Notes under the pieces: model-generated
Database searches by the model: none
The model's input: the letters and a program-made list of their open reading frames with translations, nothing else
What the model was told of the DNA's origin: nothing
In this document: positions 3,820 through 50,723 of the stretch, piece by piece
Layout of the letters: each line of letters begins with the position of its first letter
Numbering within the stretch: the first letter of the stretch is position 1
Translations under genes and position numbers: made by a program
Assembly (NCBI GenBank): GCA_964474355.1
Contig: CAYYSY010000105.1
Span: 7,649 to 71,648, forward strand
Source: an uncultured Spirochaetaceae bacterium
GTDB lineage: Bacteria > Myxococcota_A > UBA9160 > UBA4427
Reading direction: 5' to 3'
DNA: 64,000 nucleotides

Positions 3820-4089
3820 GAGGACCTCCTGATCGATGCGACTTCGCGGTCACCCGTAGGCGCCGCGCCAACGGGGACGATGCCAGCCGATGGCCATAAC
3901 GCAATGCCCATCCTGCGGTGCAACGACGAGAGGCGCCTTCGGGTGGCTGACACGCGCCGAGTGTCGGGTGGATCGGCATCTGCCCCTGTGACGGCGGCCA
4001 CCACCTTCTCGAGTGAGGGAATTTTGCGGCGGTGAGCCGCCCCGGGGTCGCGGCCCCCCGCGCTAGACTCGCCTGCCTCCGGAGGCCCC

Positions 4090-7223: not shown

Positions 7224-8555
7224 ATCGAGCGTATCGCCGATCGTGAACCACAGGATCGCCACGAGGATCAGCGGCACGACGAAGCGCAGCAGCACCTGCC
7301 AGCCGAAGAGCAGGGGTCCGAGCTTCGAGCCAGCCTCGGCCTCGTCGAGCGCACCCGGCATGAACCAGCCGACGAAGACCGAGAGCAGCAGTCCGCCGAG
7401 GATCAGCAGCAGGTTCCCACCGATCTGGTCCATCAGGCCGAGCACGTCGAGGGAGAACGCAGCGGGCACGCCGAGCAGGGCGATGGCCGAGCCACAGACG
7501 AGCGCGGCGGTGCGCCGGCTGGTGCCGAACGAGTCGATCGTGGACGCGACGACGACCTCGAGCAGCGAGATCGCGCTCGTGAGGCCACCGACGAGCAGCG
7601 CGAAGAAGAAGGCGGTGCCGACGAAGGTGCCGACGCCGCCCATCTCGGCGAACGCCTTGGGCAGCGTGATGAAGAGCGCGCCCAGCGTGCTCGCGCCGAC
7701 GTCCTCTTGCAGACCGAGCGCGAAGAGCAGCGGAAAGACCACGAGCCCGGCGATGAACGCCACGCCGAAGTCCGAGATCGCGATCGTGATCGACTCGGCT
7801 GGCAGGTCGGTGTTGCGGTCGAGATAGCTCGCGTAGGTGAGGATCGCGCCCATGCCGAGGCTCAGGCTGAAGAAGGCCTGGCCGGCCGCGTCCCGCAGCA
7901 CGTCCCTGTTCCAGATCGCACCGAAGTCGGGCTCGAAGTAGTAGGCATAGCCCTGGCTCGCGCCTGCGAGGGTCGCTGCGTAGAGCGCGAGGCCGATGAC
8001 GATCAGCGCCAGCAGCGGCATGAGCACGATCGACGCGCGCTCGATCCCCGAGCGGATGCCACCCGAGACGACGACCATCGTCACCGCCATGAAGGCGAGG
8101 TGCCAGCCGAGGGCCGGCCAGCCACTCGCGATGTGCTCGAAGTGCCCGCCGGCGTCGGCGGGGAAGCCTGAGACGAGTGACTCGAGCGCGTAGCGGAACG
8201 TCCAGCCCGCGATCACGCTGTAGTAGGCGAGGATCACGAAGCCCGCGAGCACGAAGAGCCCACCGAGCGGACGCCAGGCCGAGCCGCCGTAGTGGGCGAG
8301 GGCCTGCACCGGACTGCGCCCCGCGCCTCGTCCGAGCGTCAGCTCGGCGAGCATCACCGGCAGGCCGACCACCAGGGTCATGACGACGTAGAGCACGACG
8401 AAGGCGGCGCCACCGTTCTCGGCGGCCATGTACGAGAAGCGCCACATGTTGCCGAGCCCGACCGCCGAGCCGACGGCAGCAAGGGTGAAGCCGAGTCGGC
8501 CGGACCAGTGCTCGCGTGAGTTCTCCAATCCCGAATCCCCCTGGAGCGCGAGCAT
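7197..8555 (-). CDS. Sodium-dependent transporter, NSS/SNF family
   Basis: REHWSGRLGFTLAAVGSAVGLGNMWRF, GGAAF, GQAFFSLSLGMG; many hydrophobic segments. Confidence 0.92.
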   Translation of the reverse strand: MLALQGDSGLENSREHWSGRLGFTLAAVGSAVGLGNMWRFSYMAAENGGAAFVVLYVVMTLVVGLPVMLAELTLGRGAGRSPVQALAHYGGSAWRPLGGLFVLAGFVILAYYSVIAGWTFRYALESLVSGFPADAGGHFEHIASGWPALGWHLAFMAVTMVVVSGGIRSGIERASIVLMPLLALIVIGLALYAATLAGASQGYAYYFEPDFGAIWNRDVLRDAAGQAFFSLSLGMGAILTYASYLDRNTDLPAESITIAISDFGVAFIAGLVVFPLLFALGLQEDVGASTLGALFITLPKAFAEMGGVGTFVGTAFFFALLVGGLTSAISLLEVVVASTIDSFGTSRRTAALVCGSAIALLGVPAAFSLDVLGLMDQIGGNLLLILGGLLLSVFVGWFMPGALDEAEAGSKLGPLLFGWQVLLRFVVPLILVAILWFTIGDTLDLVRSLAAD

Positions 8556-8655
8556 ACCCTCCGGATGAAGACGCAGAAACGGTCGTCATCACTTCCACGG
8601 GGCTAGACTCGGGCCTCTCTCCCCCCGGCGAGACGGGCGGACCGAAGGAGCCTCG

Positions 8656-9525
8656 ATGAAGGACTTCCACGACGAGGTCGCCGTCGTCACCGGTGCTGCG
8701 AGCGGGATCGGGCTCGGCGTGACCGAGCGACTTCTCGCCGAGGGCATGAAGGTCGTGATGGCGGACCTCGAGCAGGAGACGCTCGAAGGCGAGATCGCGC
8801 GCCTCTCTGCGGCGGGGGGCGATGTCCTCGGGGTTCGCTGCGACGTGCGCGATGCCGGCGAGGTCACGGGCCTCGCCGAGAAGACCCTCTCACACTACGG
8901 CGGCGTACACGTCGTGATGAACAATGCCGGCGTGGCGCCGATCGGCCCGATGCTCGAGACCACCGCCGAGGACTGGCGCTGGGTAGTCGACGTGAACCTG
9001 ATGGGGGTGGTGCACGGCGTACTGGCCTTCGGCCCGATCCTGAAGGAGGCCGGGACGGGGCACATCGTCAACACGGCTTCCGAGGCGGGGCTCGTGACGA
9101 ACCCGATCCTCGGCATGTACTGCGCGTCGAAGCACGCCGTCGTCGGACTGAGCGAGTCGCTCTACCGCGAGCTCGAGGGCAGCGGCGTCGGCGTGCACAT
9201 CCTCTGCCCGAACCTCGTCAAGACGAAGATCTTCCACTCGGAGCGAAACCGCGAGGACGCCCCGGACATGACGCCTTCGCAGACGGCCTTCACCGGATCT
9301 CTCCGCGAGACCCTCGACGCCATGGGCATCACCACCGAGAAGGTCGCCGGCGACGTGGTCGACGCCATGCGGCACGACCGCTTCTGGATCTTCACCCACG
9401 AGTTCACCGTGAGCTGCGCCAGCAAGCGCTACGCCGACATCAACAAGGGCGAGAACCCGAGCGACCCCTACGCTCAGGTCGAAGCGTTCGGAGAGCTCGA
9501 AGGCAGCTTCGGTCCCGCCGACTGA
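8656..9525 (+). CDS. Short-chain dehydrogenase/reductase
   Basis: TGAASGIG, NNAGV, NTAS, YCASK (YxxxK). Confidence 0.92.
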   Translation: MKDFHDEVAVVTGAASGIGLGVTERLLAEGMKVVMADLEQETLEGEIARLSAAGGDVLGVRCDVRDAGEVTGLAEKTLSHYGGVHVVMNNAGVAPIGPMLETTAEDWRWVVDVNLMGVVHGVLAFGPILKEAGTGHIVNTASEAGLVTNPILGMYCASKHAVVGLSESLYRELEGSGVGVHILCPNLVKTKIFHSERNREDAPDMTPSQTAFTGSLRETLDAMGITTEKVAGDVVDAMRHDRFWIFTHEFTVSCASKRYADINKGENPSDPYAQVEAFGELEGSFGPAD

Positions 9526-36939: not shown

Positions 36940-36997
36940 CCGGCGGGCCGCACCGCCCGCGTCCGAACGGCGGCGGGCCCGGGGCAGCGTCGCATCG

Positions 36998-37366
36998 TTA
37001 CGAGAGCACTCCGCACGTATCAGAGAGCGCCATGCGCACGAGCGGGATGCAGACGAACGAGGTTGCCCACACGAGCACGATGCGCGCAACATGGAAGTAT
37101 CGCAGCGCACGAGCTGCGTCGGCGTCGTGCGTGCTCGAGCCGCTGCGAAGCCGAAGCTCGGCGTAGCGGCACACGATGAGCCCGACGGTCAGACTGGCAG
37201 GAAGCCCGAGGAAGGCAAGCCAGAACGTCGGCTGAATGTCCACCAGTGAGCAGCGCACGTCTCGCTCCGTCAGCGCAACCAGGAATGCGAGCGCATTGAC
37301 GACCATGAAGGCGACGATCGCGTCGCTGTAGTTGACGAGTCGATCGGCGATTGCGTCTCTCGTCAC
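36998..37366 (-). CDS. Hypothetical membrane protein (3 TM)
   Basis: Three hydrophobic segments; follows the cytochrome c gene on the same strand. Confidence 0.55.
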   Translation of the reverse strand: MTRDAIADRLVNYSDAIVAFMVVNALAFLVALTERDVRCSLVDIQPTFWLAFLGLPASLTVGLIVCRYAELRLRSGSSTHDADAARALRYFHVARIVLVWATSFVCIPLVRMALSDTCGVLS

Positions 37367-37404: not shown

Positions 37405-37839
37405 TCAGGGCCCCGGCTGTGGATCGTCCAGCAGCGCCCGCCGCGCTGATCCTGGATCGCGAAGCGGCGCCCGTCTCGCTCGCCCCACCTCGTGCTCCGT
37501 CAACGGCGACTCGAGCTCGACCCCTCCGAACTCCTCGATCACCCAGTTGAGCAGACGCGCGAGTCGAGCGTCGTCGACCGGTGACTGGGCCGCACCGGGA
37601 ACGCGCATCAGGTAGTCACGCCCCCCCGGCCGAAGCGCCACCTCGCCGACGCCACCGAGCCCGGGCACCACGTCGTTCGCACCTGCTCCATCGAGCCCAT
37701 GACACGCGGAGCAGTGCAGGACGTAGTCCTCTTCGACGGGGGGCATGGACGCCGCATCGCCTGCCACGGCCGGCACCGCCATGAACGCACACGACACGAT
37801 CGCGAGGCCACGTGCCAGCTGCGGCCGCCGACCGTTCAC
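37405..37839 (-). CDS. Periplasmic monoheme cytochrome c
   Basis: GTG start overlaps the mauA stop; signal-like N-terminus; HCSACHG (CxxCH). Confidence 0.8.
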   Translation of the reverse strand: MNGRRPQLARGLAIVSCAFMAVPAVAGDAASMPPVEEDYVLHCSACHGLDGAGANDVVPGLGGVGEVALRPGGRDYLMRVPGAAQSPVDDARLARLLNWVIEEFGGVELESPLTEHEVGRARRAPLRDPGSARRALLDDPQPGP

Positions 37840-38387
37840 TTCTCGGGCTGCCGCTCGGTCGCGACCCCCAGCACGATGGCCGTCGAGCAGTGGTAGGTCT
37901 GCACCTCGGCGCCCGCGCACCAGTTGATGTCGTTGTTGCGGAACCAGTGGTAGTCGGGGCGCTCGCCCTCGTTGCGATTGCACATGCAGCGGCCGCAGAA
38001 GGCCTTGCCGCAGCAGTCGTTGTAAGAGATGAGGTAGTCGCGGCCGTCCGCGGGGTTGCGGCAGGTGCCGACCCAGGTGACCGGGCTCATCTCGGTGCCC
38101 GGCGGACACTTCGACGCGCTGCCGCCGCAGCAGGCGCAGGCGAAGCCGTCGATCCCGCAGTGGCGCCAGTACTCGCACTTCGTGGGGTCGCCCCGGTCGC
38201 CGTCGGGCTCGGGGGCGTTCACGTCGGATGGCGACGGCCCGCCCGCCCGCGCCACCGGCAGCAGCGGCATGACTGCGCCGCCGACGAGCACACCGCCCAG
38301 ACGCGCGAGGAAGCTGCGGCGGCCGAAGCCACGAGCGAGCGAGCGGGCGGAGCGCTCGGCCCAGACGTCGAGGCGACTTCGCATCAT
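37836..38387 (-). CDS. mauA: TTQ amine dehydrogenase small subunit (MauA/AauA family)
   Basis: Tat motif GRRSFL; CEYWRHC, CPPG, VTWVGTC and NDINWC (the two TTQ Trp positions); 14 Cys. Confidence 0.95.
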   Translation of the reverse strand: MMRSRLDVWAERSARSLARGFGRRSFLARLGGVLVGGAVMPLLPVARAGGPSPSDVNAPEPDGDRGDPTKCEYWRHCGIDGFACACCGGSASKCPPGTEMSPVTWVGTCRNPADGRDYLISYNDCCGKAFCGRCMCNRNEGERPDYHWFRNNDINWCAGAEVQTYHCSTAIVLGVATERQPEK

Positions 38388-39052
38388 TCGGGCTTCTCCT
38401 TGCGGAGCGAGATGTTCTGCAGCGCGATCACGGTGCCCTTCACGTCCACGTCGTCCTTCTTCGGGCGCTTCGCTGCGAGGTGATCCTGGATCGTGGCGAA
38501 GTCCATCACGTCCGCGAGGAAGAGGCTCTCGAGATGCTCACGCGAGTTGACCAGACCGCGGGAGCGCACGATGCCCCGCTCGTCGATCAGCACCGCTGTC
38601 GGCAGCTTCGCGACCTCGTACGCGAGCCCCAGCTCGGTCGAGATCAGATACGGCACCTCGTCGAGCCCGCGCGTCTCGACGAACTCACGGTGGATCTCCG
38701 GCGTGTCACCGTCGCTGGCGAGCAGGAGCTGCACGTTGTTCGACTCGTCTCGCACCACCTTCTGCAGCGTCGGCAGCAAGGTGTCGCAGACGGGGCACGT
38801 GGGCGAGAGAAAGAAGAGGAGCGTGCGCGGCCCGGCACCGCCGACCTTCACGCGAAAGCCGTCGAGGTCGGTCGCCTCGATCACCGGCGCGGGCTCGCCG
38901 ATCTTCGGCCCCTGTTGCGAGACCATCGCCCCGACGGGCGCGATGCGTTCGTGCAGCAGACCGATCTGCCGCGTGAGCGCAACGATCACCGCGCCGAGCA
39001 CCAGCACGAGCACCCAGAGCAGGACGTTCGAGACGACGAGCGCATCGTTCAT
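38384..39052 (-). CDS. mauD: Methylamine utilization protein MauD (thioredoxin-like)
   Basis: N-terminal TM, RQIGLLHERIAPVGA, FLSPTCPVC, KGLVN-type RGLVNSREHLESL; ATG overlaps the mauE stop. Confidence 0.92.
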   Translation of the reverse strand: MNDALVVSNVLLWVLVLVLGAVIVALTRQIGLLHERIAPVGAMVSQQGPKIGEPAPVIEATDLDGFRVKVGGAGPRTLLFFLSPTCPVCDTLLPTLQKVVRDESNNVQLLLASDGDTPEIHREFVETRGLDEVPYLISTELGLAYEVAKLPTAVLIDERGIVRSRGLVNSREHLESLFLADVMDFATIQDHLAAKRPKKDDVDVKGTVIALQNISLRKEKPE

Positions 39053-39639
39053 GTCGATGTCTCCCGCGAGCGAACGAGAGGCGCCGTCGCGGCCATGACG
39101 TGCACCGCCACCCAGACGAGTGTGAGCGCAAGGAGCCCGCCGGCCAACGAGAGGAAGTCGATCCAGTACAGCGGCCGCGATGAAGCCGGCATCAGGACGA
39201 GGGCTCCCGCGCAGCTGGCCAGCACGCCATTGCGGACCAGCAGCCAGGGGCCGATGCGCGGCGACTTGCCGGCAGGGCCGAGACAGCCACAGTCGATGTC
39301 GCGGCGGCCGCGCGCGAGGTTGACGCCGATGCCCGCCGAGTAGAGCACGAGCAGCGCGATGGCGCCGAGTGCGGCGAGCGAGCCGACCGTCGCCAGGGCG
39401 CCGGGGCCCGGTCCACTGAAGCCCGACACGACGAGCCCCACCGCGACGGCGGCCTCGGCCAGCGTCGCCGCCACCGCATGGAAGTGCGCCCACTCGACCG
39501 GCGTCACCTTGTAGTCCGCGATGATCTGCGTCGCCGCGTCGAGATCGCGGGCCTTGTGCACCGCAGCCTGTATGAAGACTCCGGCGAGGGCCAGCCGAAG
39601 CAGCCAGGCGATCATCGGATCGACCGAGAGCCCCATCAT
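39049..39639 (-). CDS. mauE: Methylamine utilization protein MauE (DoxX-like membrane protein)
   Basis: AAVHKARD, RGRRDIDCGC, LLVRN; several TMs; ATG overlaps the mauB stop. Confidence 0.9.
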   Translation of the reverse strand: MMGLSVDPMIAWLLRLALAGVFIQAAVHKARDLDAATQIIADYKVTPVEWAHFHAVAATLAEAAVAVGLVVSGFSGPGPGALATVGSLAALGAIALLVLYSAGIGVNLARGRRDIDCGCLGPAGKSPRIGPWLLVRNGVLASCAGALVLMPASSRPLYWIDFLSLAGGLLALTLVWVAVHVMAATAPLVRSRETST

Positions 39640-40958
39640 CACGGCACCTCGAGCCGCATGCCGCCGAGCCCGACCTGCGAGAGGTTGCGCAGATGCTCGC
39701 CGGTCCGGCCGTCGAGGATCGCCACCGCACCACGCTCGCCGTGCCGCACGAAGACGACCGGCTTCGCGTCCTTCGACACGGTCACGGTGTCGGCCCCCTC
39801 GCGCGGGATCAACGTCTCGAGCAGCCAGGGCACGAACCCGTCGGGCCCGATCTCCATCATGTCGACGAGGAAGGCAGCGGTGAAGTTCGGCAGCGCGACG
39901 CGAGCGACGCGCTCGCGGGCTGCGGCGTCGAAGATCCAGAGCTCGGGGCCCGGGTCCTTGTGCGAGCCGGGGCCCCCCTGATGGAAGAGCACGTAGAGCC
40001 GCCCCGTCGGCGCGTTTGCGGCCATGAGCTGCCGGCCCCCCGGCCGCCAGCCCGCTTTGCGATCGGCGGCGTCGACCATCGACCACGTCTCGACGCTCGG
40101 CGTCTCGCCCGAGAAGTCGACGGCGTGCAGCTGGCCCGAGAACGTCGGGAAGTGCCACGTGTCACCGATGCGACCCGCCGCGAGCATCGCCGGGTCTTCG
40201 ATGGGATCGAAGAACCGCTCGCTCGCGACGTCGCCGGCGAGCTGACCCGACTCGTCGAGGCGGAACACGTGCACGGTGCCGCTGCCGCAGAGCATCGCCC
40301 ACGCGCGGGGACCGATCGGATAGATGCCCGCGCAGCCCGCCGTCGGCACCTCGGCGACGAAGGCCCGCGTCTCGAGGTCGATGATCGAGACCGAGGTCAA
40401 CGGAAACTGGTTGTAGACGGCGAGGAAGCGCTCGCCGTCGAGCAGCGCCGTGTACGCGAGCGAAGCCGCGCTCTCGGCGGCGCGCGTCGGAAAGACGATG
40501 TCGCCCTTCACGTCGAGCGTGTGGTCGTCGTAGATGGTGACGAAGTCGGTGCGCTTGCCGCGCCGGCCGCGGTCATAGTCGATCTCGACCGAGTAGAACT
40601 CGCCCCGGCGAGCCGAGTAGAGCGGTGGCTTCGGCGAGATCGTCGTCCCGCTGTCGATCGTGGCGTGCATGGCGCCGGTGTCGCCGTCGAAGAGCTGGGC
40701 ATGGAGGAAGACGGCGTCGACGACCCAGACGAAATGGGGACCGATCGGGGGCACGGTGGCGGAGTCGAGCCGGCCGACGGACGCGGCCGCTTCGCGATCT
40801 CCCCCTTCTTCTCTGGCGGCGGCTTCGTGGAGGCCGGTCGACAGCGCGAGTCCTGCAGCCAGCACCGCCGTGCCGAGGCGAAGTGCAGCCGACGTCGCGG
40901 GCGTGGACCGTCGAAGCCAGCTCTCACGCCGGGGGCGCAGGCGGTCGCGCACGGGCAC
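39639..40958 (-). CDS. mauB: TTQ amine dehydrogenase large subunit (MauB/AauB family beta-propeller)
   Basis: RGKRTDFVTIYD, VYNQFPLTSVSIIDL, PTAGCAGIYP, LCGSG, HKDPG; first gene of the mauBEDA operon; start may be GTG 40952. Confidence 0.88.
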   Translation of the reverse strand: MPVRDRLRPRRESWLRRSTPATSAALRLGTAVLAAGLALSTGLHEAAAREEGGDREAAASVGRLDSATVPPIGPHFVWVVDAVFLHAQLFDGDTGAMHATIDSGTTISPKPPLYSARRGEFYSVEIDYDRGRRGKRTDFVTIYDDHTLDVKGDIVFPTRAAESAASLAYTALLDGERFLAVYNQFPLTSVSIIDLETRAFVAEVPTAGCAGIYPIGPRAWAMLCGSGTVHVFRLDESGQLAGDVASERFFDPIEDPAMLAAGRIGDTWHFPTFSGQLHAVDFSGETPSVETWSMVDAADRKAGWRPGGRQLMAANAPTGRLYVLFHQGGPGSHKDPGPELWIFDAAARERVARVALPNFTAAFLVDMMEIGPDGFVPWLLETLIPREGADTVTVSKDAKPVVFVRHGERGAVAILDGRTGEHLRNLSQVGLGGMRLEVP

Positions 40959-41148: not shown

Positions 41149-41904
41149 CTAGGTGCGGCGCCGTCCGGCGTAGCCCAGGCCGATGAGCCCCACGCCCATG
41201 AGCACGGCGGTGGCCGGCTCGGGCGCGACGCCGTACTCGACGTTGTCGATGGCGCCGGAGCCGCCCATCAGGAGCTCGGCGCTCACGATGTCCTCGAGGC
41301 CGTGCCGAGCGGCGAAGATCGGTTCGATGCGGTTTGCGGTGTTGTCGCCGATGTCGAAGCCCGACAGCACGCTCGCGAAGTCGATGGTCGCCGTGGCCCC
41401 CTCGCCATCGGTGAGCGTGATCGCACCGTTCTCGGCCATCGTGCTGTCGACGTCGATCAGGTCGAAGCCGATGAACGGCGTCGCGACGCCGAACTCGAAG
41501 GTGAGCGTGCCGGCCGGGCGGCTCCCTTCGTCGTCGGGGCGCGTGCACCTGCCGGTCGAGCAGCCGGCGGTGTTCTCCTGGACGATGAGAATCCGCCCGA
41601 GCGGCACGCCGACGAGATTTCCGCCGTCCCAGGCGTACTCGAGGTCGGGATCCTCGGTCTGCCCATCGAAGTCACTGTCGAAGGCCACCGCGTAGTCGTC
41701 GGCGGGATCGTGGAAGCGCGGGTTGTCGGCGCTGATCGTGATTCCGTCGAAGCCCGTGACCACGTCGCCGTGGTCGAGCCCGTCGAAGGTGATCGTCAGC
41801 GCGGCGGCGGTCGAGGGGGTCGTCGCGAGCGCGAAGAGACCGACTGCGAGAGCAGCGAAGAGCGTGCTGAAGGCGCGTCCGGCTCGGGTCTGGGTGAAGG
41901 GCAT
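41149..41904 (-). CDS. Small secreted PEP-CTERM protein
   Basis: Signal peptide ending AAA; ends APEPATAVLMGVGLIGLGYAGRRRT (PEP-TM-basic). Confidence 0.85.
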   Translation of the reverse strand: MPFTQTRAGRAFSTLFAALAVGLFALATTPSTAAALTITFDGLDHGDVVTGFDGITISADNPRFHDPADDYAVAFDSDFDGQTEDPDLEYAWDGGNLVGVPLGRILIVQENTAGCSTGRCTRPDDEGSRPAGTLTFEFGVATPFIGFDLIDVDSTMAENGAITLTDGEGATATIDFASVLSGFDIGDNTANRIEPIFAARHGLEDIVSAELLMGGSGAIDNVEYGVAPEPATAVLMGVGLIGLGYAGRRRT

Positions 41905-42240
41905 CGGTCTGCATCCGCCTGGAGAGCGTCGGGTTCCAGCCTGCGAGCGGTCTTCGCGGACCACCTCGTCCGGCTGCATGTGGTGTGGTCCGGGCGTTTG
42001 TGTCAGGGAAGTTCGGGGCGACGCCGGAGGCACGGCCCCGCGGGAGCGCACCTGGATCCACGCGACTCATCCGGCAAGAAAACTTGCAGTGACAGGGGTT
42101 TGCCGCTCCATGACTCTCGCTTCGTGGGACTGCCGGGCCCTCGTCATGCACGCAGGGCGCCGGCGCCGAAGCCCCGCGGAGTCGGCGGGTGCGTCAGCCA
42201 GTCGGCCAGTCGGGTTGAAGGCGAGACCGCGAAGACACGG

Positions 42241-42733: not shown

Positions 42734-43303
42734 ATGCGAATCCTCATCGTTGAAGACGACGACGAGCTCCGCGAGGCCATCGCGATCGACGCGCAGGGCT
42801 GGCCCATGCGCCACCGCGGCGGCGAAGGCGAGATCCTCACCGCACCGACTGCCGAAGAGGGCATCGCCCTGCTCGAGCTCGACCCCGAGTTCGTGCTCGT
42901 CGACGTGCGCCTCGGCGAAGACTCGGGCATTCGCGTCGTGAAGGCGGCGAGCCAGCGCCTGCAGCCGCCGAGCTGTCTCGCGATGAGCGGACAGGCGTCA
43001 GCCGAAGAGGCGTTCGAGCTCGCGCGGCTCGGCGTGCGCGGCTACCTCGCCAAGCCCTTCACCCTCGGCGAGCTGCGCGACATCGTCGAGCAGGCGGTCA
43101 ACGCTGCACCGCAGCTCGAGTCGGTGGCCCAGCAGGAGGTCGGCCACACCCCCATCCTCACCGTCCAGGACCGCGTCAAGAAGGCCATGCTCTTGCAGGC
43201 CCTCGAGCTCTGGGACGGCAACTACGTCAAGACCGCGAGCTCCCTCGGCGTGACCCGCCAGGCCGTCCAACAGATGGTCAAGCGCTACGAGATCGAGCGC
43301 TGA
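42734..43303 (+). CDS. Response regulator, receiver domain plus Fis-type HTH (RegA/PrrA-like architecture)
   Basis: ILIVEDD, VLVDVRL (phospho-Asp), MSG, YLAKPF; C-terminal ALELWDGNYVKTASSLGVTRQAV. Confidence 0.9.
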   Translation: MRILIVEDDDELREAIAIDAQGWPMRHRGGEGEILTAPTAEEGIALLELDPEFVLVDVRLGEDSGIRVVKAASQRLQPPSCLAMSGQASAEEAFELARLGVRGYLAKPFTLGELRDIVEQAVNAAPQLESVAQQEVGHTPILTVQDRVKKAMLLQALELWDGNYVKTASSLGVTRQAVQQMVKRYEIER

Positions 43304-43348
43304 AGGGCGAGCACCCCCCAATCGCACCGCATCCAAGGAGATCCGGAC

Positions 43349-44932
43349 ATGCCGAACCCCGCGAGCCAGACCGCTCTCTTCTCCGGTCCCGGGCGCTTCC
43401 CCGCCCTCGCGCTCTATCGATCCCGCGGCTCGCGACCGAAGCACGTTCGCGCGCGTGCAGCGGCGCTTCTCGACGAGATCCAGCAGCTGGGCCTGTCGAC
43501 CGAGCACATCCTGGTGGCTCTCTCGCCTGGCTCGCTGCGCGGACACCCCGACTCGCTGCCCGGCCACGACATCAGGCCGCAGGATCCGGGCAACGGCTTC
43601 GAGTTCGAGTTGGATGCGGCACTCGACGTAGCGGTCATGGTCCAGATTTCGGCGGCGACGGCGGAGGATCGCGTTCATGCGCTGCGCCTGGTGAAGCACG
43701 TACTCGAGGACGGCAACCACCTGCAGATCATCGAGGAGCTGCTCGGAGACGTGCGCACCAGCTACCGCGAGCCCTTCGGCTACCCGGACGGCAGGAAGCC
43801 CAGCGACGCAGCCGACATCCGCGGTGCGGCGCTCATCTCGAGCGGCGACCTGTCCGGCGGAAGCTGGATCTTCTATCAGCGCTTCGTCCACGATCTGGTC
43901 GAGTTCTTCAAGCAGGGTGAGAACGAGCGTCACGCGATCATGGGCATCGACTTCGAGGGCGACACCGTCCCCACCCCGCCGTCGGATCCGGCAACCCAGG
44001 GGCACGTCACGCTGGCGCGGCGTGTGAACCGCGACGCAGCGGGGCGCCCGCAGATCATCCGCCGCGGCTTCCCGTTCCGCGCGGCGAACGGCGAAGAGGG
44101 GCTCGTCTTCATCGGCGTGACGAATGAGCCGCTGAATTTCAAGGTCATCCTTCAGGCGATGTTGGGTGGCGCATCCAGCGCGACCCACGACGCGATGCTC
44201 GCGTTCGTCGACGCCGTGAGCGGGGGGCTCTTCTTCGCGCCTCCCAACGCGGCGTGGCTCGCCAAGGGACAGTCCGTACCGAGTGTCAGCGTCCCGTTGG
44301 ACGTCACGTCGATCGAGCGGCCGGTCGACGAAGCCGTGGTCCTCTACCCGTTTACGCCGAAGGGCCTCGACTACATGGAGCGGATGCGAAACGAGCTGAT
44401 CTTCGGCAACCCGGTCGGCTGGATCGATCCGGTCCCGAACCCCGACGACGAGATCGGCTCGAGCGTGGCGCAGTTCGCGCTGACCAAGAGCGAAGAGATC
44501 CACGAGGCCATTGCCGGCGGGGTCCCTGCCGACCCCCAGGTGCTCCGGGATCTCGAGGGGTGGCTGACCGACTTCGCCAACCTCCCCGCGCACTTGAAGG
44601 ACGAAATCCCGGCTGACGTCGACACCCTCGTCCAGGAGCTGATCATCGCGGCGAACAATGGACCGCTCACGGAGGCCAGCGTGACCGCGGCCGCAGCCAG
44701 CAATCGGCTGCTGAATGCGACGGCGGGTGCGAATCGCGCCATCGCATCGGGCGTCGACACGGTGCCGCCGCCGGTGCGTGACCTCGTGAACGGCACGGCC
44801 CGGGTCGTCGCGGGCACGGTGAACGCCGACCCCGTCATCAAGAACGCGCTCGACACCCTGCGCAACGAGGCGATGGCCGCGTCGGTGAAGGTCAACCAGG
44901 GTCAGGGCTTCTACATTACGCTGAACGTGTGA
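43349..44932 (+). CDS. DyP-type heme peroxidase with ~200 aa C-terminal extension of unknown family
   Basis: EPFGYPDG (GxxDG), GSWIFYQRFVHDL, proximal GHV, distal IIRRGFPF, GLVFIG, GGLFFAP; then non-DyP sequence ending GQGFYITLNV. Confidence 0.85.
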   Translation: MPNPASQTALFSGPGRFPALALYRSRGSRPKHVRARAAALLDEIQQLGLSTEHILVALSPGSLRGHPDSLPGHDIRPQDPGNGFEFELDAALDVAVMVQISAATAEDRVHALRLVKHVLEDGNHLQIIEELLGDVRTSYREPFGYPDGRKPSDAADIRGAALISSGDLSGGSWIFYQRFVHDLVEFFKQGENERHAIMGIDFEGDTVPTPPSDPATQGHVTLARRVNRDAAGRPQIIRRGFPFRAANGEEGLVFIGVTNEPLNFKVILQAMLGGASSATHDAMLAFVDAVSGGLFFAPPNAAWLAKGQSVPSVSVPLDVTSIERPVDEAVVLYPFTPKGLDYMERMRNELIFGNPVGWIDPVPNPDDEIGSSVAQFALTKSEEIHEAIAGGVPADPQVLRDLEGWLTDFANLPAHLKDEIPADVDTLVQELIIAANNGPLTEASVTAAAASNRLLNATAGANRAIASGVDTVPPPVRDLVNGTARVVAGTVNADPVIKNALDTLRNEAMAASVKVNQGQGFYITLNV

Positions 44933-46260
44933 ATCGACGATTTCGCAGCTGGCTCTCGGTTCTCGCCCCCGAGCGCAAGGACGCCAGCGACCCGGGCGCC
45001 TGGGTGGGAACCTTCGCGCTCGGCTCGATCGTCCTCGCGACGGCGAGCTTCGCCCCCGGCGTCTCCGATCTCTTCGAGCTGCCCTTCTGGCCGGCGTTCG
45101 GGATCTTCACCGTGGCGTGTGCCTTCGGCTGGGCGTGTGGCTGGCTCGAGCACGCCGATCGGCTGACGCTCGACCAGTACGGGATCATCGCGCTCGTCGG
45201 AGCGGCGCTCTTCCAGACGTCGACGACCGCGAGCGTCGCCCTCTCCGTACTGCCCGGAGCGGCGATCATGGCCGCGCTGTCGCTGATCGTCGTGTCGTTC
45301 CACGCGTTCCACCACAAGGTCTCGTTCGAGTTCCCGTTCGGCGCAATCCCGACGATCATCGCCGTGATCGTCGGCGTGGCCCTCGACCCGACTCCCGAGA
45401 ACCTCTCGATCTGGGCGGTGCTCGCCCCCGTGATGCTCGGCTTCAGCTTCATCCTCGGCACCCTGGGACTGCGCGGTCACCGCGAGCGGCTCCAACAGCG
45501 CGCGCTCACCGATGCCGTGCACGCCCAGGTCCTGCAGGAGCGCACCCGCGACCGCGATGCCGTTTCGAGCCAGCTGCTCAAGCTGCTCGAACACAACCAC
45601 GACGCGAGCAACGCGCTCTCGAGCGTCATGCTGAAGTCACAGCTCCTCGCAGAGAAGGTCGATGCCGAAGGCGTCGACGACGCACGGCTCGCCGAGCTCA
45701 AGAGCCTGGCCGCATCGGTGACGAGCGGGCTGTCGCGCCTACGAAGCCTGCTCGACGACGCACGAGAGGTCCGGCTCGGAAGCCAGCCCAAGGTGCAAGC
45801 GGTGTCTACGGGGCGCGTTCTCGACGGCATCGTCGGCGAGGTCCGCGTCCGCTACCCGCGAGTGCACGTCGAGGTACAAGCCGATCTCTCGGCGGACGAC
45901 GCCCCGCTCGTCACGCTGGTCGGGGGCTCCTCGAGTCTCGCTCGCATCCTCGAAAACCTGCTGCTGAATGCGTGCCAGGGAGATGGAGTCCGCGGTGCCC
46001 ACGAGGTGCGTGTAGAGGTCCGCCCGTTGCCAGAGGCCGGACGCCTGTCGATCGAGGTGGCCGACGACGGGCCCGGCTTCCCACCAGAGCAGCTCGCCTC
46101 GGAGACCTTTGCCTTCCAGACCTCGAAGCCCGGCGGCCTGGGACTCGGCCTCTACACCGTCTCGAATCTGGTCCGCGCGAGTGGCGGCGAGATCGTCAGG
46201 GAGAACCGCAGCACGGGGGGCGCACGGGTCTCGATCCAGCTGCCGGTGGTCCGGATGTGA
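44929..46260 (+). CDS. Polytopic membrane sensor histidine kinase
   Basis: About six TM segments without a large periplasmic loop; H-box HNHDASNAL, N-box ENLLLNA, G1 DDGPGF, G2 GLGLGL; GTG overlaps the DyP stop. Confidence 0.92.
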   Translation: MNRRFRSWLSVLAPERKDASDPGAWVGTFALGSIVLATASFAPGVSDLFELPFWPAFGIFTVACAFGWACGWLEHADRLTLDQYGIIALVGAALFQTSTTASVALSVLPGAAIMAALSLIVVSFHAFHHKVSFEFPFGAIPTIIAVIVGVALDPTPENLSIWAVLAPVMLGFSFILGTLGLRGHRERLQQRALTDAVHAQVLQERTRDRDAVSSQLLKLLEHNHDASNALSSVMLKSQLLAEKVDAEGVDDARLAELKSLAASVTSGLSRLRSLLDDAREVRLGSQPKVQAVSTGRVLDGIVGEVRVRYPRVHVEVQADLSADDAPLVTLVGGSSSLARILENLLLNACQGDGVRGAHEVRVEVRPLPEAGRLSIEVADDGPGFPPEQLASETFAFQTSKPGGLGLGLYTVSNLVRASGGEIVRENRSTGGARVSIQLPVVRM

Positions 46261-46294
46261 CCCTCCCCACCGAAGGGCGCAGCCAGGTGCGGGC

Positions 46295-47017
46295 TTGATC
46301 TCGGGGCCCGGATGGTACGGCCGGGTGCTCGCGGACGTCGCGCAGCGCCACTACCCGACGGAGACCCGCGTCGACCTGTCTGCGTCGATCCGCTCCATGC
46401 AGACGGGTCTGCTCGACTTCGCCTACGGCCTCTCCGTCGAAGCGGGCGTCCCGCCGGCCATCGCCGAGGCGCGCTGCGTCGCGGTCTTCTACTCGGCCTC
46501 GGCGGTCAACCTCGCCGACGACCTCGCCGACGGGGACTGCGACTACCTCGCCGAGCCCTACCGCTCGGGGCCCGCGACGCAGTACCTGCTCCAGAGCCTC
46601 TTCTTCCAGAAGGTCTGCGAGCTCGGCTTGCCCGTGGAGGTGATCTTCGCCGTGACACGCGACTTCGAGCAGGTCGCAGCCCTGCAGCACGTGGAGCTCG
46701 TGACCGACACCTGGACCTTCGACGTGGCTCGCCGCGTCGCTGAGGGCATCACGGGCCGGCAGATCGCGGCCTATCTCCGAATCTCACTCTTCGGCACGGA
46801 CCTCGCTCGGCACGCAGAGCAGATCGGCGTAGACGTGGGTCTGGCCACCCATGTCGCCCTGGACGCCGAGTCCCGCGATCCGCGGTTCACGAGCCTCGAC
46901 GACACCGACCGCGAGCAGCTCCGACAGCTCGCCCTCGAGGCGATCGGCCGGGCCACTGCTCTCGAATTAGAAGCAATCGTGCCCGTAGCGACACAGGTGC
47001 ACCGAGCCCTCGGCTGA
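46295..47017 (+). CDS. Class I isoprenoid-synthase-fold protein, ComQ-like prenyltransferase candidate
   Basis: NLADDLADGD Asp-rich motif (DDLAD at 46517-46531), GITGRQ where polyprenyl synthases have KT/G motifs, degenerate second motif THVALDAES; start uncertain (TTG 46295, GTG 46325, ATG 46397). Confidence 0.62.
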   Translation: MISGPGWYGRVLADVAQRHYPTETRVDLSASIRSMQTGLLDFAYGLSVEAGVPPAIAEARCVAVFYSASAVNLADDLADGDCDYLAEPYRSGPATQYLLQSLFFQKVCELGLPVEVIFAVTRDFEQVAALQHVELVTDTWTFDVARRVAEGITGRQIAAYLRISLFGTDLARHAEQIGVDVGLATHVALDAESRDPRFTSLDDTDREQLRQLALEAIGRATALELEAIVPVATQVHRALG

Positions 47018-47070
47018 CCGCAGCCGGTGGCGGCACGGATGCGCCGAGCCCTCGATCGACCGCACCGGTG
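46997..47070. repeat. Degenerate 42-bp-period duplication of the 3' end of the ComQ-like gene
   Basis: 46997-47029 gtgcaccgagccctcggctgaccgcagccggtg versus 47039-47070 atgcgccgagccctcgatcgaccgcaccggtg (about 27 of 33 positions match). Confidence 0.7.
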
Positions 47071-49128
47071 CCGATAGACTCACCGCCGATGTCCTCCCCC
47101 CCTCCCCCCGGACGGCTACTGAATCGCGAGCTCTCGTGGCTGGACTTCGACCGCCGCGTGCTCGACCTCGCGTCGGATCTGCGCCGCCCGCTGCTCGAGC
47201 GCCTCAAGTTCATCGCGATCTACGCCCAGAACCTCGACGAGTTCTTCCAGGTGCGCGTCGCCGGTCTGCAGGATCGGCTCGAGGCCGAGCCCACACGCAC
47301 GTCGGCCGACGGCCTCACCCCGGGTGAGCAGCTCGCCGAGATCCAGGCGCGGGTCTCCGCCTTCGCGAGCGAGGCCCAGGCGCTCTTCGAGCACGAGCTC
47401 CGGCCGGCGCTCGCGGTCGAGGGCATCTCGCTCGTCGGCTGGGACGAGCTCGACGCCCGCGAGCGGCGCGAGGCCCAGCGCCGGTTCGACAGCGAGGTCC
47501 ACCCGCTGCTGATCCCGCTCGCAGTCGACTCCGCGCACCCATTCCCGTACCTCTCGGGCCTCTCGCTCTCGGTCGGCGCGGTGGTCGCGCACACGCCCAC
47601 GGGCGAGGAGCGCTTCGCGCGCATCAAGGTGCCTTCATTCGTGAAGCGCTTCTTCGACGTCGGCAATGGTCGCTACGTGCCGATCGAAGAGATGATCCAA
47701 GCGCTCTTCCAACGCTTCTTCCCCGAGGACGAGATCCTCGAAGTCGGCTGCTTCCGCGTGACCCGTGACGCGGACCTCGACGTCGACGACCGAGACACCG
47801 TCGATCTCGCGAGCGAGATCGAGCACGAGCTGCGCCGGCGAAACCGCCAGAGCGATGCAGTGCGGCTGGAGGTCGATCGCAGCGTCGGCCCGCTCATGCG
47901 CTCGTACCTGATGCACGAGCTCGACCTCGATGACGCCGACGTGTACCGGACAGAGGGCATGCTCGACCTCGGCGCGCTCTTCGAGCTCGTGAAGCTCGAC
48001 CGGCCCGAGCTGAAGGATCCGCCCTGGACGCCGCGGCGGATCAGGGCGCTCAATGCCGATCGCCCCGCCGAGTTCTTCCAGACGGTGCGCGAGCGCGACT
48101 TCCTCGTCCATCACCCGTACCAGAGCTTCGAGGGCTCGGTCGAGGAGCTGCTGCGCGCGGCCTCCCAGGATCCCCAGGTCCTGGTGATCATGTCGACCCT
48201 CTACCGCACGGGCGGGCCCGAGAGCGGCATCGTCCAGGCGCTCGAGCAGGCGGCGGCCTTCGGCAAGCAGGTGCTGGTGCTCGTCGAGCTGAAGGCGCGC
48301 TTCGAGGAGGCGGCGAACCTCGAGCGGGCGCGCTCACTCGAGCGAGCGGGTGCGCACGTCGTGTACGGCGTCATGGGGCTCAAGACGCACGCGAAGCTCG
48401 CGCTGGTGATCCGCGCCGAAGAGGATGGACTTCGCCGCTACTGCCACGTCGGTACGGGCAACTACAACCCCGTGACCGCGCGGCTCTACGAGGACATCGG
48501 GCTGCTGACCTCGTCGCCCGAGATCACGCTCGACGCGGCCGAGGTGTTCCAGCGACTGACCAGCGGCAGTGGCGCCCGCGACTACGCGCGCCTGCTCGTG
48601 GCGCCCGAGCGCCTGCGCGACGGCCTGCTGGCGCGCATTCGAGAGCAGACGCACCGGCACGGACGCATCGTGTTCAAGATGAACAGCCTCGCCGATCCGC
48701 CGATCATCGAGGCACTGTATGCCGCGTCGCAGGCCGGGGCGAAGATCGACCTCGTCGTGCGCGGCATCTGCTGCCTGCGGCCCGGCGTGTCGGGACTCTC
48801 CGAGAACATCCGCGTGCGCTCGATCGTCGGCCGCTTCCTGGAGCACTCGCGGATCTTCCGCTTCGGCGATCCGGTCGACGGCGCCGAGCACTGGCTCGGA
48901 TCGGCGGATCTCATGCCGCGCAACCTCGACCTGCGCGTCGAGACACTGGTGCCCGTCGACGATCCGGCCCTGCGCTCGCGCCTCGACCGCGTGCTCGCGG
49001 TCTACCTGCAGCCGGACATCCGGGCGTGGGAGCTCGGCCCCGACGGCCGCTGGAAGCAGAGCGCCGGACGCCTCGACGCCCAGGAAATCTTCATCCGGGC
49101 GATCGAGCGCCACGACGACGCGCGCTGA
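47068..49128 (+). CDS. ppk1: Polyphosphate kinase 1
   Basis: LLNRELSWLDF, NLDEFFQVRV, HPFPYLS, FLVHHPYQSF, ELKARFEE, LKTHAK, HVGTGNYN, GRFLEHSR, SADLMPRNL. Confidence 0.96.
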   Translation: MPIDSPPMSSPPPPGRLLNRELSWLDFDRRVLDLASDLRRPLLERLKFIAIYAQNLDEFFQVRVAGLQDRLEAEPTRTSADGLTPGEQLAEIQARVSAFASEAQALFEHELRPALAVEGISLVGWDELDARERREAQRRFDSEVHPLLIPLAVDSAHPFPYLSGLSLSVGAVVAHTPTGEERFARIKVPSFVKRFFDVGNGRYVPIEEMIQALFQRFFPEDEILEVGCFRVTRDADLDVDDRDTVDLASEIEHELRRRNRQSDAVRLEVDRSVGPLMRSYLMHELDLDDADVYRTEGMLDLGALFELVKLDRPELKDPPWTPRRIRALNADRPAEFFQTVRERDFLVHHPYQSFEGSVEELLRAASQDPQVLVIMSTLYRTGGPESGIVQALEQAAAFGKQVLVLVELKARFEEAANLERARSLERAGAHVVYGVMGLKTHAKLALVIRAEEDGLRRYCHVGTGNYNPVTARLYEDIGLLTSSPEITLDAAEVFQRLTSGSGARDYARLLVAPERLRDGLLARIREQTHRHGRIVFKMNSLADPPIIEALYAASQAGAKIDLVVRGICCLRPGVSGLSENIRVRSIVGRFLEHSRIFRFGDPVDGAEHWLGSADLMPRNLDLRVETLVPVDDPALRSRLDRVLAVYLQPDIRAWELGPDGRWKQSAGRLDAQEIFIRAIERHDDAR

Positions 49129-49212
49129 GCCGATCCGGGCGATCGAGCGCCGCGACGGCGCGCGCTGAGCAGATTCGGGCGATCGAGCGCCACGACGACG
49201 CGCGCTGAGCCG
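49093..49212. repeat. Three tandem 40-bp copies of the ppk1 3' end
   Basis: atccgggcgatcgagcgccacgacgacgcgcgctgagccg at 49093, 49133 (3 substitutions) and 49173 (1 substitution); TGA ends at 49128, 49168, 49208. Confidence 0.95.
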
Positions 49213-49445
49213 CCCCCGAGCGCCCCGCGTCCCCAAGCCCCCTCTCCACCCACCAGCGCCGAACGATTGAGCAGCGACTGACCGGACCGTGCGCAATCGC
49301 GCCGGAACGACGCACAGCGCGTGGCCTCCGGTGCGTCTCGCATTGGCACGAATGTTGGAATGGAACGAGGCGTGCGCTGATGAGGCGCCCATGAGAGCGG
49401 CCCCCGCACCCTCCCGGCGCGGGGCCCTCTCGGGAGGTGATTCCG

Positions 49446-50723
49446 ATGCAGATCGTCGCCGCGAGTGAGCCGGTACCGGCACGCCTCGACGTCGCGCCCC
49501 CGCTCTTCCGCCGCCTGCCCGAGGATCTCGATCTGCGCGACGAGGTCCAGCTCGAGTGCCTCCTCGCCGCCGCGGACGAGCTGCTCGCCCGGGCCGACGA
49601 CCCCGCGACCCTCGACCAGCTCGACTGGCTGGCCCACGCCTCGCCCGAACGCTGGAGCATCGCCGCGCGCATCGTCGTGAAGCTCGCGCGGTCGAAGCAG
49701 GCCGTTCAGCGCCGTACAGGCCCGCTCCACCTCTCGGTGGTCGTGCCCCTCTACGGCGAGCACGAGCGCATGCAGCGCCCTGAGACGCATCCGAACGGCG
49801 AAGCGTTCCTCGACCGCAAGATCCGCCAGCTCGACTGGCTGCTCGGTGCGAAGGACGGGGCGAGCTGGGATCTCTGCCTCGTCGACGACGGCTGTCCGCA
49901 CGACAGCGGGCACCTCGCACGTCGCTGGCTCGACGAGCGGCATCCGCGGGCGGACGCGAACGTGATCTTCCTCCGAGACGCAATCGCCGCGGGCGTCGCG
50001 CCGGTGAGCGACCTCGAGCACGTCGACCAGAGCCGCAAGGGCGGCTCGATCCATCTCGGACTCTTCGAGGTGACGCGCGCGCAGCGCCCCGGACACGTCG
50101 TCATCTACACCGACGCCGATCTCTCGACGCACCTCGGTCAGTCGGGCCTGCTGATCGAGGCCCTCGGCGAGCCGGGCACCCTCATGGCGGCGGGCTCACG
50201 GCGGCATCCGCTCTCGGTCGTCGCGAAGAGCGCCGCGCGCAGCGCACGCGGCCGCCTCTTCATCTATCTCTGGAAGAAGCTGCTGCCCGAGCTCGCGTAT
50301 CTCGACGACACCCAGTGCGGGTTCAAGGCGATCTCCGCGGGCACGGCGAGGCGCCTCGTCGAGAAGCCGCTGCGCGAGCGGGGCTTCGCCTTCGACATCG
50401 AGCTGCTGCTCCGCAACGAGCAGAGCCTCGGACGCTCGATCGCGGCCGTGCCGATCGCCTGGATCGACAGCGAGGCGGCATCGACCACGACCGCCCTCGA
50501 GCCCTATCTGCCCATGCTGCAGAGCGTGGTCTCGCTCTACCGCGATCTCTGCCCCCGGCGCGAGAGCTCGGAGTGCTTCGCCCTGGCGATCGAATCCATG
50601 GACGACGATGCCTGGAAGCACGCGGTGACGGATCTCGCGCCGCCGCTCGAGTCGATCGACCCGGCGCTCGACCTGGCGAGCACGCCGCTGCCGGCGTCGG
50701 CGCTCACGCAAGCGGCGGCCTGA
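49446..50723 (+). CDS. GT2-family (Dpm1/ALG5-like) glycosyltransferase with N-terminal extension
   Basis: LSVVVPLYGE, LVDDG, RKGGSI, YTDADLS (DxD), DTQCGFKA, FAFDIELL; GGAGG SD before ATG 49446. Confidence 0.78.
   Translation: MQIVAASEPVPARLDVAPPLFRRLPEDLDLRDEVQLECLLAAADELLARADDPATLDQLDWLAHASPERWSIAARIVVKLARSKQAVQRRTGPLHLSVVVPLYGEHERMQRPETHPNGEAFLDRKIRQLDWLLGAKDGASWDLCLVDDGCPHDSGHLARRWLDERHPRADANVIFLRDAIAAGVAPVSDLEHVDQSRKGGSIHLGLFEVTRAQRPGHVVIYTDADLSTHLGQSGLLIEALGEPGTLMAAGSRRHPLSVVAKSAARSARGRLFIYLWKKLLPELAYLDDTQCGFKAISAGTARRLVEKPLRERGFAFDIELLLRNEQSLGRSIAAVPIAWIDSEAASTTTALEPYLPMLQSVVSLYRDLCPRRESSECFALAIESMDDDAWKHAVTDLAPPLESIDPALDLASTPLPASALTQAAA

Follow-up and report, generated by a model that had tools for sequence, protein, structure and literature searches.

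A DyP-type haem peroxidase carrying a fused kinase-neighbouring protein within a polymorphic four-gene signalling module of an uncultured bacterium

We analysed a 64,000-nucleotide (nt) stretch of contig CAYYSY010000105.1 (hereafter, the window) from an uncultured Spirochaetaceae bacterium (assembly GCA_964474355.1), with the emphasis on a single open reading frame (ORF) of 527 amino acids (aa) at 43349-44932 of the forward strand, which encodes a DyP-type haem peroxidase domain (aa 1-300) followed in frame by a tail of 227 aa. Alignments to related loci identify this tail as a fused, enlarged copy of a small protein that elsewhere stands alone, with DyP joined to its N-terminus in several lineages. 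This stand-alone protein, of 85-104 aa, is unnamed and belongs to no Pfam or NCBIfam family; we denote it S, and the fusion DyP-S. By comparison of gene neighbourhoods, S or DyP-S belongs to a conserved module of four genes, RR - S - HK - X, where a RegA-like response regulator (RR) and a sensor histidine kinase (HK) are accompanied by another protein, X. Our preferred reading, to which we assign a probability of roughly 0.45, is that S couples the DyP haem domain to the kinase in a multi-component sensor of the type 'two-component system plus accessory haem protein'.

The N-terminal domain (43349-44248, +) is B-class-like, predicted to be cytoplasmic, and matched in Pfam, NCBIfam and PDB. Pfam Dyp_perox_C (PF20628) matches aa 142-300 with an E-value of 2.3e-19, above its cut-off, and NCBIfam TIGR01413 scores 75, below its cut-off of 100. 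The closest solved DyP, that of Vibrio cholerae (PDB 5de0), aligns with aa 6-300 (E 8.7e-22), ending on the residues GGLFFAPPN. An initial annotation, made from the sequence alone, had placed the end of the fold near GGLFFAPP, in agreement with this alignment, which stops at aa 300 in FFAPPN. Altogether, 37 DyPs in PDB match the protein, none reaching past about aa 318, so that aa 320-527 are covered by none of them. D147 (of GYPDG), H219 and R238/R239 are invariant in all five alleles and in register with the motifs of 5de0; from general knowledge of DyPs, we take these residues to be the GxxDG aspartate, the proximal histidine and the distal arginine, respectively. On these matches, the domain belongs to the DyP family, and haem binding and peroxidase activity are predicted. 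Like the B-class DyPs, such as the V. cholerae enzyme and YfeX, it aligns end to end over about 300 aa, retains the catalytic residues and lacks a signal peptide. With respect to the latter, the initial annotation is supported by the hydropathy profile, in which the 527-aa protein shows neither a transmembrane (TM) segment nor a hydrophobic N-terminus (maximum 19-residue Kyte-Doolittle value, KD19, 1.21); no twin-arginine motif was seen by eye, and no dedicated signal-peptide predictor was used.

In known B-class DyPs, the chain stops at about 300-320 aa or is extended by a short encapsulin-targeting peptide. The absence of such a targeting tail, already claimed from the sequence, holds, and we rejected the possibility that the protein is encapsulin cargo: its neighbours are a response regulator and a histidine kinase, none of the 10 shell-sized ORFs in the window is an encapsulin, and the tail comprises 227 aa and is homologous to S.

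The tail is a genuine part of the protein. The GC content at third codon positions (GC3) stays at 0.77-1.0 in the DyP frame over the entire tail and does not pass to the kinase frame until about 44929, in a bacterium of about 69% GC that is represented in marine and sediment metagenomes; this continuity indicates a true coding sequence and, together with five independent intact ORFs, rules out a frameshift or assembly artefact. A full-length search detected the same DyP-tail architecture in four other assemblies (527-539 aa, 46-62% identity), and exact contigs of the window allele are present in independent runs. Hence the extension of about 200 aa perceived in the initial annotation corresponds to a 227-aa coding tail that is kept in five alleles. 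The gene is preceded by AGGAG 8 nt upstream of its ATG, and its stop codon TGA (44930-44932) overlaps the GTG start of the kinase (44929-44931) as GTGA, the overlap that had been noted at the outset. A promoter and terminator scan of the locus was uninformative.

Direct searches with the tail yielded little. It has no Pfam or NCBIfam match even at E<=10, a word-indexed search with the tail alone returned no relatives, and no relative was found in two scans of the GTDB species genomes or, beyond the related locus L001, in a scan of metagenome contigs. An exhaustive HMMER search of 1.84e9 representative proteins produced two matches, both full-length DyPs with the tail, so that by these searches the tail occurs only on DyPs. 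The connection to S was made through protein X, 75 relatives of which were traced to their loci. In four of these loci (L006, L008, L009 and L010), where no DyP is present, a stand-alone S is encoded directly upstream of an orthologous kinase with six TM helices. The initial annotation had proposed to look for stand-alone homologues of the tail before a histidine kinase, and these S proteins of 85-104 aa are such homologues. Like the tail, they match no Pfam family at E<=1-10, and NCBIfam at permissive E-values yields nothing for them either.

The evidence of homology is strongest at the C-terminus. In hhalign comparisons, S residues 38-100 align with the C-terminal 56 residues of the window protein's tail (E 1.4e-8, probability 95.5%), and S residues 10-80 align more weakly with tail residues 35-110 (E 4e-4). 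Stand-alone S contains an internal H.VLAGG motif and ends in ...AN.IN..AGYYV[ST]Ixx, and the window tail ends in ...AS.KVNQGQGFYITLNV, such that the terminal motifs agree (AN.IN..AGYYVTI in S, AS..VN.GQGYYITL in the tail). The two architectures are bridged by short DyP-S fusions of 405-421 aa in loci L011-L014, where the RR, HK and X neighbours are the same as in the window. In BLASTP, the L011 fusion aligns with the window protein without a break over aa 7-357, across the junction between DyP and S, and then again over about aa 464-525, leaving approximately 105 window residues (roughly aa 358-463) without a counterpart; the alignment with the L012 fusion likewise continues unbroken through aa 357. 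These alignments show that in the window lineage S has gained about 100 aa in the form of a rapidly evolving helical insert. The terminal motif is located at the extreme C-terminus in 13 of the 13 S and DyP-S sequences, with DyP always N-terminal, and its form N.G.G[FY]Y[IV]T[LI] is kept between the window and loci whose kinases are only about 30% identical. The proximal histidine is kept in every DyP-S, and the aspartate and arginine are kept in the window family. In three of the short fusions (L011 2457-3674, L012 2435-3673 and L014 2390-3655), FGFYHG replaces the FGYPDG of the window, with the proximal histidine and the arginine retained. A double-glycine leader at the H.VLAGG motif of S appears doubtful: by eye, the spacing is off the consensus, and no C39 transporter is encoded nearby.

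The tail can be divided into four segments. A poorly conserved linker (aa 301-329; 44249-44335, +), with a mean pairwise identity of 0.30-0.47, a nonsynonymous to synonymous rate ratio (omega) of 0.86 and a low model confidence, leads to the N-terminal half of the S domain, S-N (aa 330-374; 44336-44470, +), which carries LYPFTP..YM.RMR...FG.PVG.ID.VPNPDDE and is the best conserved part of the tail among the five alleles (pairwise identity 0.63-0.69, omega 0.44). The lineage-specific helical insert (aa 375-459; 44471-44725, +) has no counterpart in stand-alone S or in the short fusions and is the most variable segment (pairwise identity 0.23-0.38, omega 0.99, with 5 of the 10 pairs above 1); it shows a faint resemblance to S repeats (hhalign E 0.005-0.01), which weakly suggests that it was derived from a tandem duplication of the S hairpin. 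The C-terminal half, S-C (aa 460-527 and the stop codon; 44726-44932, +), has a pairwise identity of 0.57-0.65 over aa 460-489, an omega of 0.69 and the terminal motif N.G.G[FY]Y[IV]T[LI]xx. Thus, the conservation of S-N and S-C (pairwise identity 0.57-0.69 among the five alleles) equals that of the catalytic motifs, and the end of the protein, for which hypervariability had been considered, instead ranks with the most conserved portions of the extension. The statement that the tail lacks tryptophan is correct for S-C, the last 68 residues, where the conserved aromatic residues are tyrosine and phenylalanine, but not for the entire tail, which contains W303, W358 and W405.

Structural modelling was of limited use. 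The full-length AF2 model, built from a five-sequence alignment, is poor (predicted local distance difference test score, pLDDT, 43), and of its Foldseek hits only weak matches to DyPs are meaningful. The tail-only model reaches a pLDDT of 61, with a helical stretch over aa 398-498 at about 80-93, including helices at aa 398-458 in the insert, and low confidence at both ends, and against PDB, Foldseek found nothing better than E 0.73.

The gene order of the module is stable across divergent loci. In all 13 loci examined, S or DyP-S is immediately upstream of the kinase, with a gap of 0-25 nt or an overlap, and X is beside the kinase, directly after it except in L006 and L007, where X and an X paralogue are transcribed divergently from the S-HK pair. 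Most of the loci have a small regulator with a receiver (REC) domain and a Fis-type helix-turn-helix (HTH) before S. Across loci, the three partners of S are orthologous: the kinases are 27-34% identical end to end, the regulators 38-46% and the X proteins 33-43%, and the GC content of the loci ranges from 49 to 73%. No transporter or peptidase gene is conserved near S in the loci examined. In L006, the tandem X paralogues (7262-7942 and 8001-8729; 226 and 242 aa), the first of which contains NLTDDLVDGDCTYL, are followed by a REC-GAF regulator in place of the usual REC-HTH. In L009, the kinase gene (3642-4700) is broken into short ORFs, a 105-aa fragment of which matches the kinase N-terminus, reflecting either a pseudogene or an assembly error.

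In the window, the regulator (42734-43303, +; 189 aa, REC and Fis-type HTH) is recognised by Pfam Response_reg and lies in the conserved left flank of the variable region described below. The kinase (44929-46260, +; 443 aa) has a Pfam HATPase_c domain, an NHDxxNxL H-box and, by hydropathy, six TM helices within aa 24-182 (nt 44998-45474), which are connected by loops of at most about 8 residues, with no periplasmic domain; the kinases of every related module can be aligned with it from end to end. Both proteins resemble RegB/RegA (PrrB/PrrA, ActS/ActR), where a six-TM kinase without a periplasmic domain is likewise paired with a small REC and Fis-HTH regulator. However, the NCBIfam scores are far under the cut-offs, namely, 41.7 against 250 for the regulator, although the ActR/PrrA-type model aligns over its full length, and 41.7 against 350 for the kinase, and inspection by eye revealed no RegB-type GGxxNPF quinone motif in the kinase. 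FHAFHHK (aa 124-130; 45298-45318) occurs in the cytoplasmic loop that joins TM4 to TM5 of the kinase; of this sequence, which could serve as a metal or haem ligand, the first histidine alone is semi-conserved in the family (as H-G/A). Metatranscriptome contigs match the window exactly over the DyP/HK junction (44871-45114), part of the kinase and the HK/X junction (46135-46529). These contigs are consistent with co-transcription of DyP-S, HK and X, with DNA carry-over as a possible other source.

The evolution of this region is highly uneven. DyP-S, HK and X form an island of divergence, or allelic block (43310-47070), with sharp borders at 43309/43310 and 47070/47071: in related strains, the flanks are 95-98% identical, whereas inside the block HK and X are about 81-82% identical and DyP-S less than 80%. 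In contigs of four sediment metagenomes, the left flank is 95-98% identical over at least 9 kb, all fit is lost at 43309, the pieces of the kinase and X that are present are only about 81-82% identical, and the fit resumes at 47071, at the start of the polyphosphate kinase gene, with 96-98% identity for at least 8 kb; one contig physically joins X (82%) to the polyphosphate kinase (95%). In L004, the regulator is 98.7% identical at the amino acid level, with a synonymous divergence (dS) of 0.065, as opposed to a dS of 0.76-0.94 for the adjacent DyP-S, and at the nucleotide level the match drops from about 98% identity to about 55-60% a few bases past the regulator stop codon, to rise again at the kinase start. 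Thus, exactly DyP-S, HK and X have been replaced by a divergent allele between near-identical strains. The polyphosphate kinase 1 gene (PPK; 47068-49128, +; Pfam PP_kinase domains) represents the conserved right flank and is not a proposed member of the system. Block polymorphism next to a conserved regulator is the pattern of com and agr loci, where it reflects signal-receptor specificity, or pherotype.

The rates of protein evolution within the block follow a gradient. Between the window and L001, the amino acid identity is 54% for the DyP domain, 48.5% for the tail, 69.5% for the kinase TM domain, 83.5% for the catalytic part of the kinase, 75% for X and 81-89% for PPK, the putative glycosyltransferase (49437-50723) and GDPD. 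By the Nei-Gojobori method, the omega values are 0.34-0.74 for the DyP domain, 0.48-0.94 for the tail, 0.31-0.46 for the kinase TM domain and 0.06-0.25 for the catalytic part of the kinase, RR, X and the flanking genes. DyP-S as a whole (0.34-0.94) is therefore far above its neighbours, and all alleles retain intact ORFs at a dS of about 0.6-0.9.

Protein X (46295-47017, +; 240 aa, TTG start) contains an invariant motif, NLADDLADGDCDYL, and further on an invariant D..R, and its family comprises 75 proteins. The initial annotation had described this downstream protein as ComQ-like. X has no match in Pfam or NCBIfam at permissive E-values and no sequence match in PDB, none of 47 family members matches PF00348, the family of ComQ (PMC4008528), at E<=1, and a search of PDB with the X profile found no synthase. 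Nevertheless, in hhalign the X family aligns with a profile of ten polyprenyl synthases, taken from E. coli and plasmid records, over 148 collinear columns (score 32.2, E 1.2e-3, probability 19.5%), compared with scores of at most 19.9 in 44 controls (the reversed template, 40 shuffled templates and three unrelated alignments). At the first Asp-rich motif of the synthases, X has DDLxD in register, and at the second it has a degenerate HVAxD. This alignment, weak but better than the controls, is suggestive of a relationship between X and the polyprenyl synthases, the superfamily of ComQ; X is not demonstrably a member of the ComQ family. In two modules with stand-alone S, L008 (8711-9550) and L009 (5744-6592), X is followed by an S-adenosylmethionine-dependent methyltransferase gene whose start overlaps the X stop codon, and in a third, L010 (5761-7014 and 8828-9751), X lies beside a squalene-hopene-cyclase-like gene and a UbiE-like methyltransferase gene. 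These neighbours hint at a role of X in isoprenoid chemistry.

Under the reading that we favour, the most economical one, S would be the kinase-docking and kinase-coupling subunit, and the DyP domain would provide a haem-based input (peroxide, redox state or haem status, for example). S would relay this input to a membrane-embedded kinase lacking its own sensing domain, and the kinase would in turn set the phosphorylation of the regulator. The translational coupling of the DyP-S and kinase genes favours a stoichiometric complex, and because the protein always terminates in a free G[FY]Y[IV]T[LI]xx tail, this tail is proposed to be either the docking site or a site modified by X. The docking of S on the kinase and the haem-dependent control are inferred from gene-fusion logic, under which fused parts work together, and from the precedent of HbpS-SenS-SenR in Streptomyces, where the gene of a haem-binding accessory protein that is the sensory component, and is secreted and octameric, likewise lies beside those of a membrane-embedded kinase and a regulator (PMC4991794, PMC3754957). 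The analogy is one of logic: HbpS is unrelated in sequence, with no such Pfam match here, the haem protein in the present case is a cytoplasmic DyP with an S domain, and X is a fourth protein. Several observations weigh against our reading. It leaves X without a role, and it accounts neither for the omega of DyP-S compared with its neighbours nor for the exchange of exactly DyP-S, HK and X between strains that are 96-98% identical elsewhere. The replacement of the distal aspartate by histidine in L011, L012 and L014 implies that peroxidase catalysis may not be the property that is conserved, and the predicted structures offer little help, with a pLDDT of 43 for the full-length protein and 61 for the tail.

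Fast evolution, block exchange and a role for X all fit a different arrangement, akin to ComQXPA or agr, that we consider rather unlikely. Here, S, on DyP in the window, would be a signal precursor, X, as an isoprenoid-synthase-like enzyme, would modify its tyrosine tail, and the released tail would be sensed by the cognate six-TM kinase, so that S, HK and X would make up a pherotype block with a shared regulator. As in ComQXPA of Bacillus (PMC4008528), there are four adjacent genes on the same strand, the gene for a small protein lies just upstream of that for a multi-TM kinase, an enzyme-like partner has an Asp-rich motif and, in X, a weak similarity to the polyprenyl synthase profile (32.2 against at most 19.9, as described above), and polymorphism affects the small protein, the kinase and the enzyme-like gene but not the regulator, which is conserved. 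The ComX-like gene position attributed to the tail in the initial annotation is accordingly borne out, in the sense that related loci place a homologous, separate small protein just upstream of the kinase. In addition, the swapped segment is exactly DyP-S, HK and X, with sharp borders and flanks that are 96-98% identical, the order of rates, S > kinase TM domain > kinase catalytic domain and RR, reproduces the pattern reported for ComX, ComQ and the ComP N-terminus (PMC4008528), and the tail is always a free C-terminus. The differences are, however, substantial. Neither the ComX nor the ComQ family of Pfam is matched, hhalign gives a probability of only 19.5%, and the resemblance of PPPVRDLVNGTARVVAG to a ComX leader, put forward earlier, was not reproduced, the tail being without a Pfam match at E<=10. 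The isoprenylation of ComX occurs at a tryptophan near the C-terminus of a variable peptide (PMC4008528), whereas the S tail is conserved rather than hypervariable and has tyrosine. S is 85-104 aa long, or part of a 405-539-aa fusion, compared with 50-75 aa for ComX, and it would be strange for a leader sequence to consist of a cytoplasmic haem enzyme of 300-400 aa. Motifs for export or cleavage are absent from S, no conserved transporter or peptidase is encoded nearby, and the outer loops of the kinase are no longer than about 8 aa. The gene order is RR-S-HK-X instead of Q-X-P-A, the kinase has six TM helices compared with 8-10 in ComP, and the regulator has a Fis-type HTH and not the LuxR type. 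Finally, a census found com loci in Firmicutes only (PMC4008528), whereas the present loci come from high-GC marine-sediment metagenomes. The fused-precursor interpretation of the initial annotation is thus supported by the homology of the tail to a protein in the precursor position and by the polymorphism of the block, but not by ComX membership or by any export or cleavage signal, and the tail has tyrosine where ComX has tryptophan.

A variant of this scheme, in which the modified tail stays inside the cell, accommodates the same features and appears quite improbable to us. The group added by X to G[FY]Y[IV]T[LI]xx, isoprenyl or of another kind, would act as a C-terminal lipid anchor that holds S, whether or not DyP is attached, at the inner face of the membrane near the kinase, as a bacterial counterpart of protein prenylation in the service of an intracellular sensor. 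Such an anchor agrees with the position of the motif at the extreme C-terminus in 13 of 13 S and DyP-S sequences, DyP being always N-terminal, with the constant co-occurrence of X, weakly polyprenyl-synthase-like and retaining the first Asp-rich motif alongside a degenerate second one, and with a cytoplasmic S facing a kinase whose sensor region is purely membrane-embedded. The proposal is nonetheless entirely inferential, there is no Cys-type prenylation box, and the anchor explains the block polymorphism no better than the coupling of DyP to the kinase does. Alternatively, the tail would be only an oligomerisation or stability domain of the peroxidase, or an appendage decaying under relaxed constraint, whose proximity to the kinase has no functional meaning. 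The high omega of the tail, with the insert near neutrality at 0.99, and a helical fold with no specific structural match point in this direction, but we consider this explanation highly improbable: S exists without DyP but never apart from the kinase and X, S-N and S-C match the catalytic motifs in conservation, and the ORFs are intact in all alleles at a dS of about 0.6-0.9. The initial annotation had also named a match to a known structural or oligomerisation domain, or a tail on DyPs away from such a kinase and prenyltransferase-like gene, as observations that would speak against a signalling role; the tail matches no known domain and is always linked to the kinase and X.

Several features of the window lie outside the module. 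Just upstream of the regulator, a gene at 41149-42051 (-) encodes a 300-aa protein that ends in a PEP-CTERM-type sorting tail, PEPATAVLMGVGLIGLGYAGRRRT. Farther upstream, a methylamine dehydrogenase (mau)-like cluster (37836-40958, -), judged by eye from the translations, includes a Cys-rich light chain (37836-38387), a thioredoxin-like protein, a membrane protein and a beta-propeller-like heavy chain (39639-40958). At 36942-37363, 420 nt are missing in related strains (runs X9 and X11), which have 12 other letters there and are otherwise about 96% identical. On the right side, an extra 84 nt after the PPK stop codon (49128-49213) repeat the 3' end of PPK, with a second copy coding for ...RAIERHDDAR; in related strains from three runs, CCCCCCGGCC takes the place of these 84 nt, and L001 matches both copies. 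The gene at 49437-50723 encodes a 428-aa protein that is 85% identical in L001, its sole Pfam signal being a marginal match to GT2 (E 0.19).

Taken together, these results define a four-gene signalling module, two components of which, S and X, are in no curated family, and into which a haem peroxidase has been recruited by gene fusion. Kinases that consist only of membrane segments on the sensory side are hard to match with a stimulus, and the fused partner offers a testable one, namely, haem, peroxide or redox state. At the population level, pherotype loci show the same replacement of alleles in a block next to a conserved regulator. In a broader and, in our view, doubtful formulation, S, the six-TM kinase and X could represent an unrecognised, widespread signalling block outside Firmicutes, where a divergent isoprenoid-synthase-like X would modify the tyrosine tail of S, as either a released ComX-like signal or a lipid anchor, the alleles would correspond to strain-specific communication or sensing groups, and the precursor or adaptor would have been welded to a haem peroxidase in some lineages. 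If X is indeed an isoprenyl transferase that acts on the S tail, the logic of ComQXPA, or else that of protein lipidation, would extend to uncultured bacteria of marine sediments.

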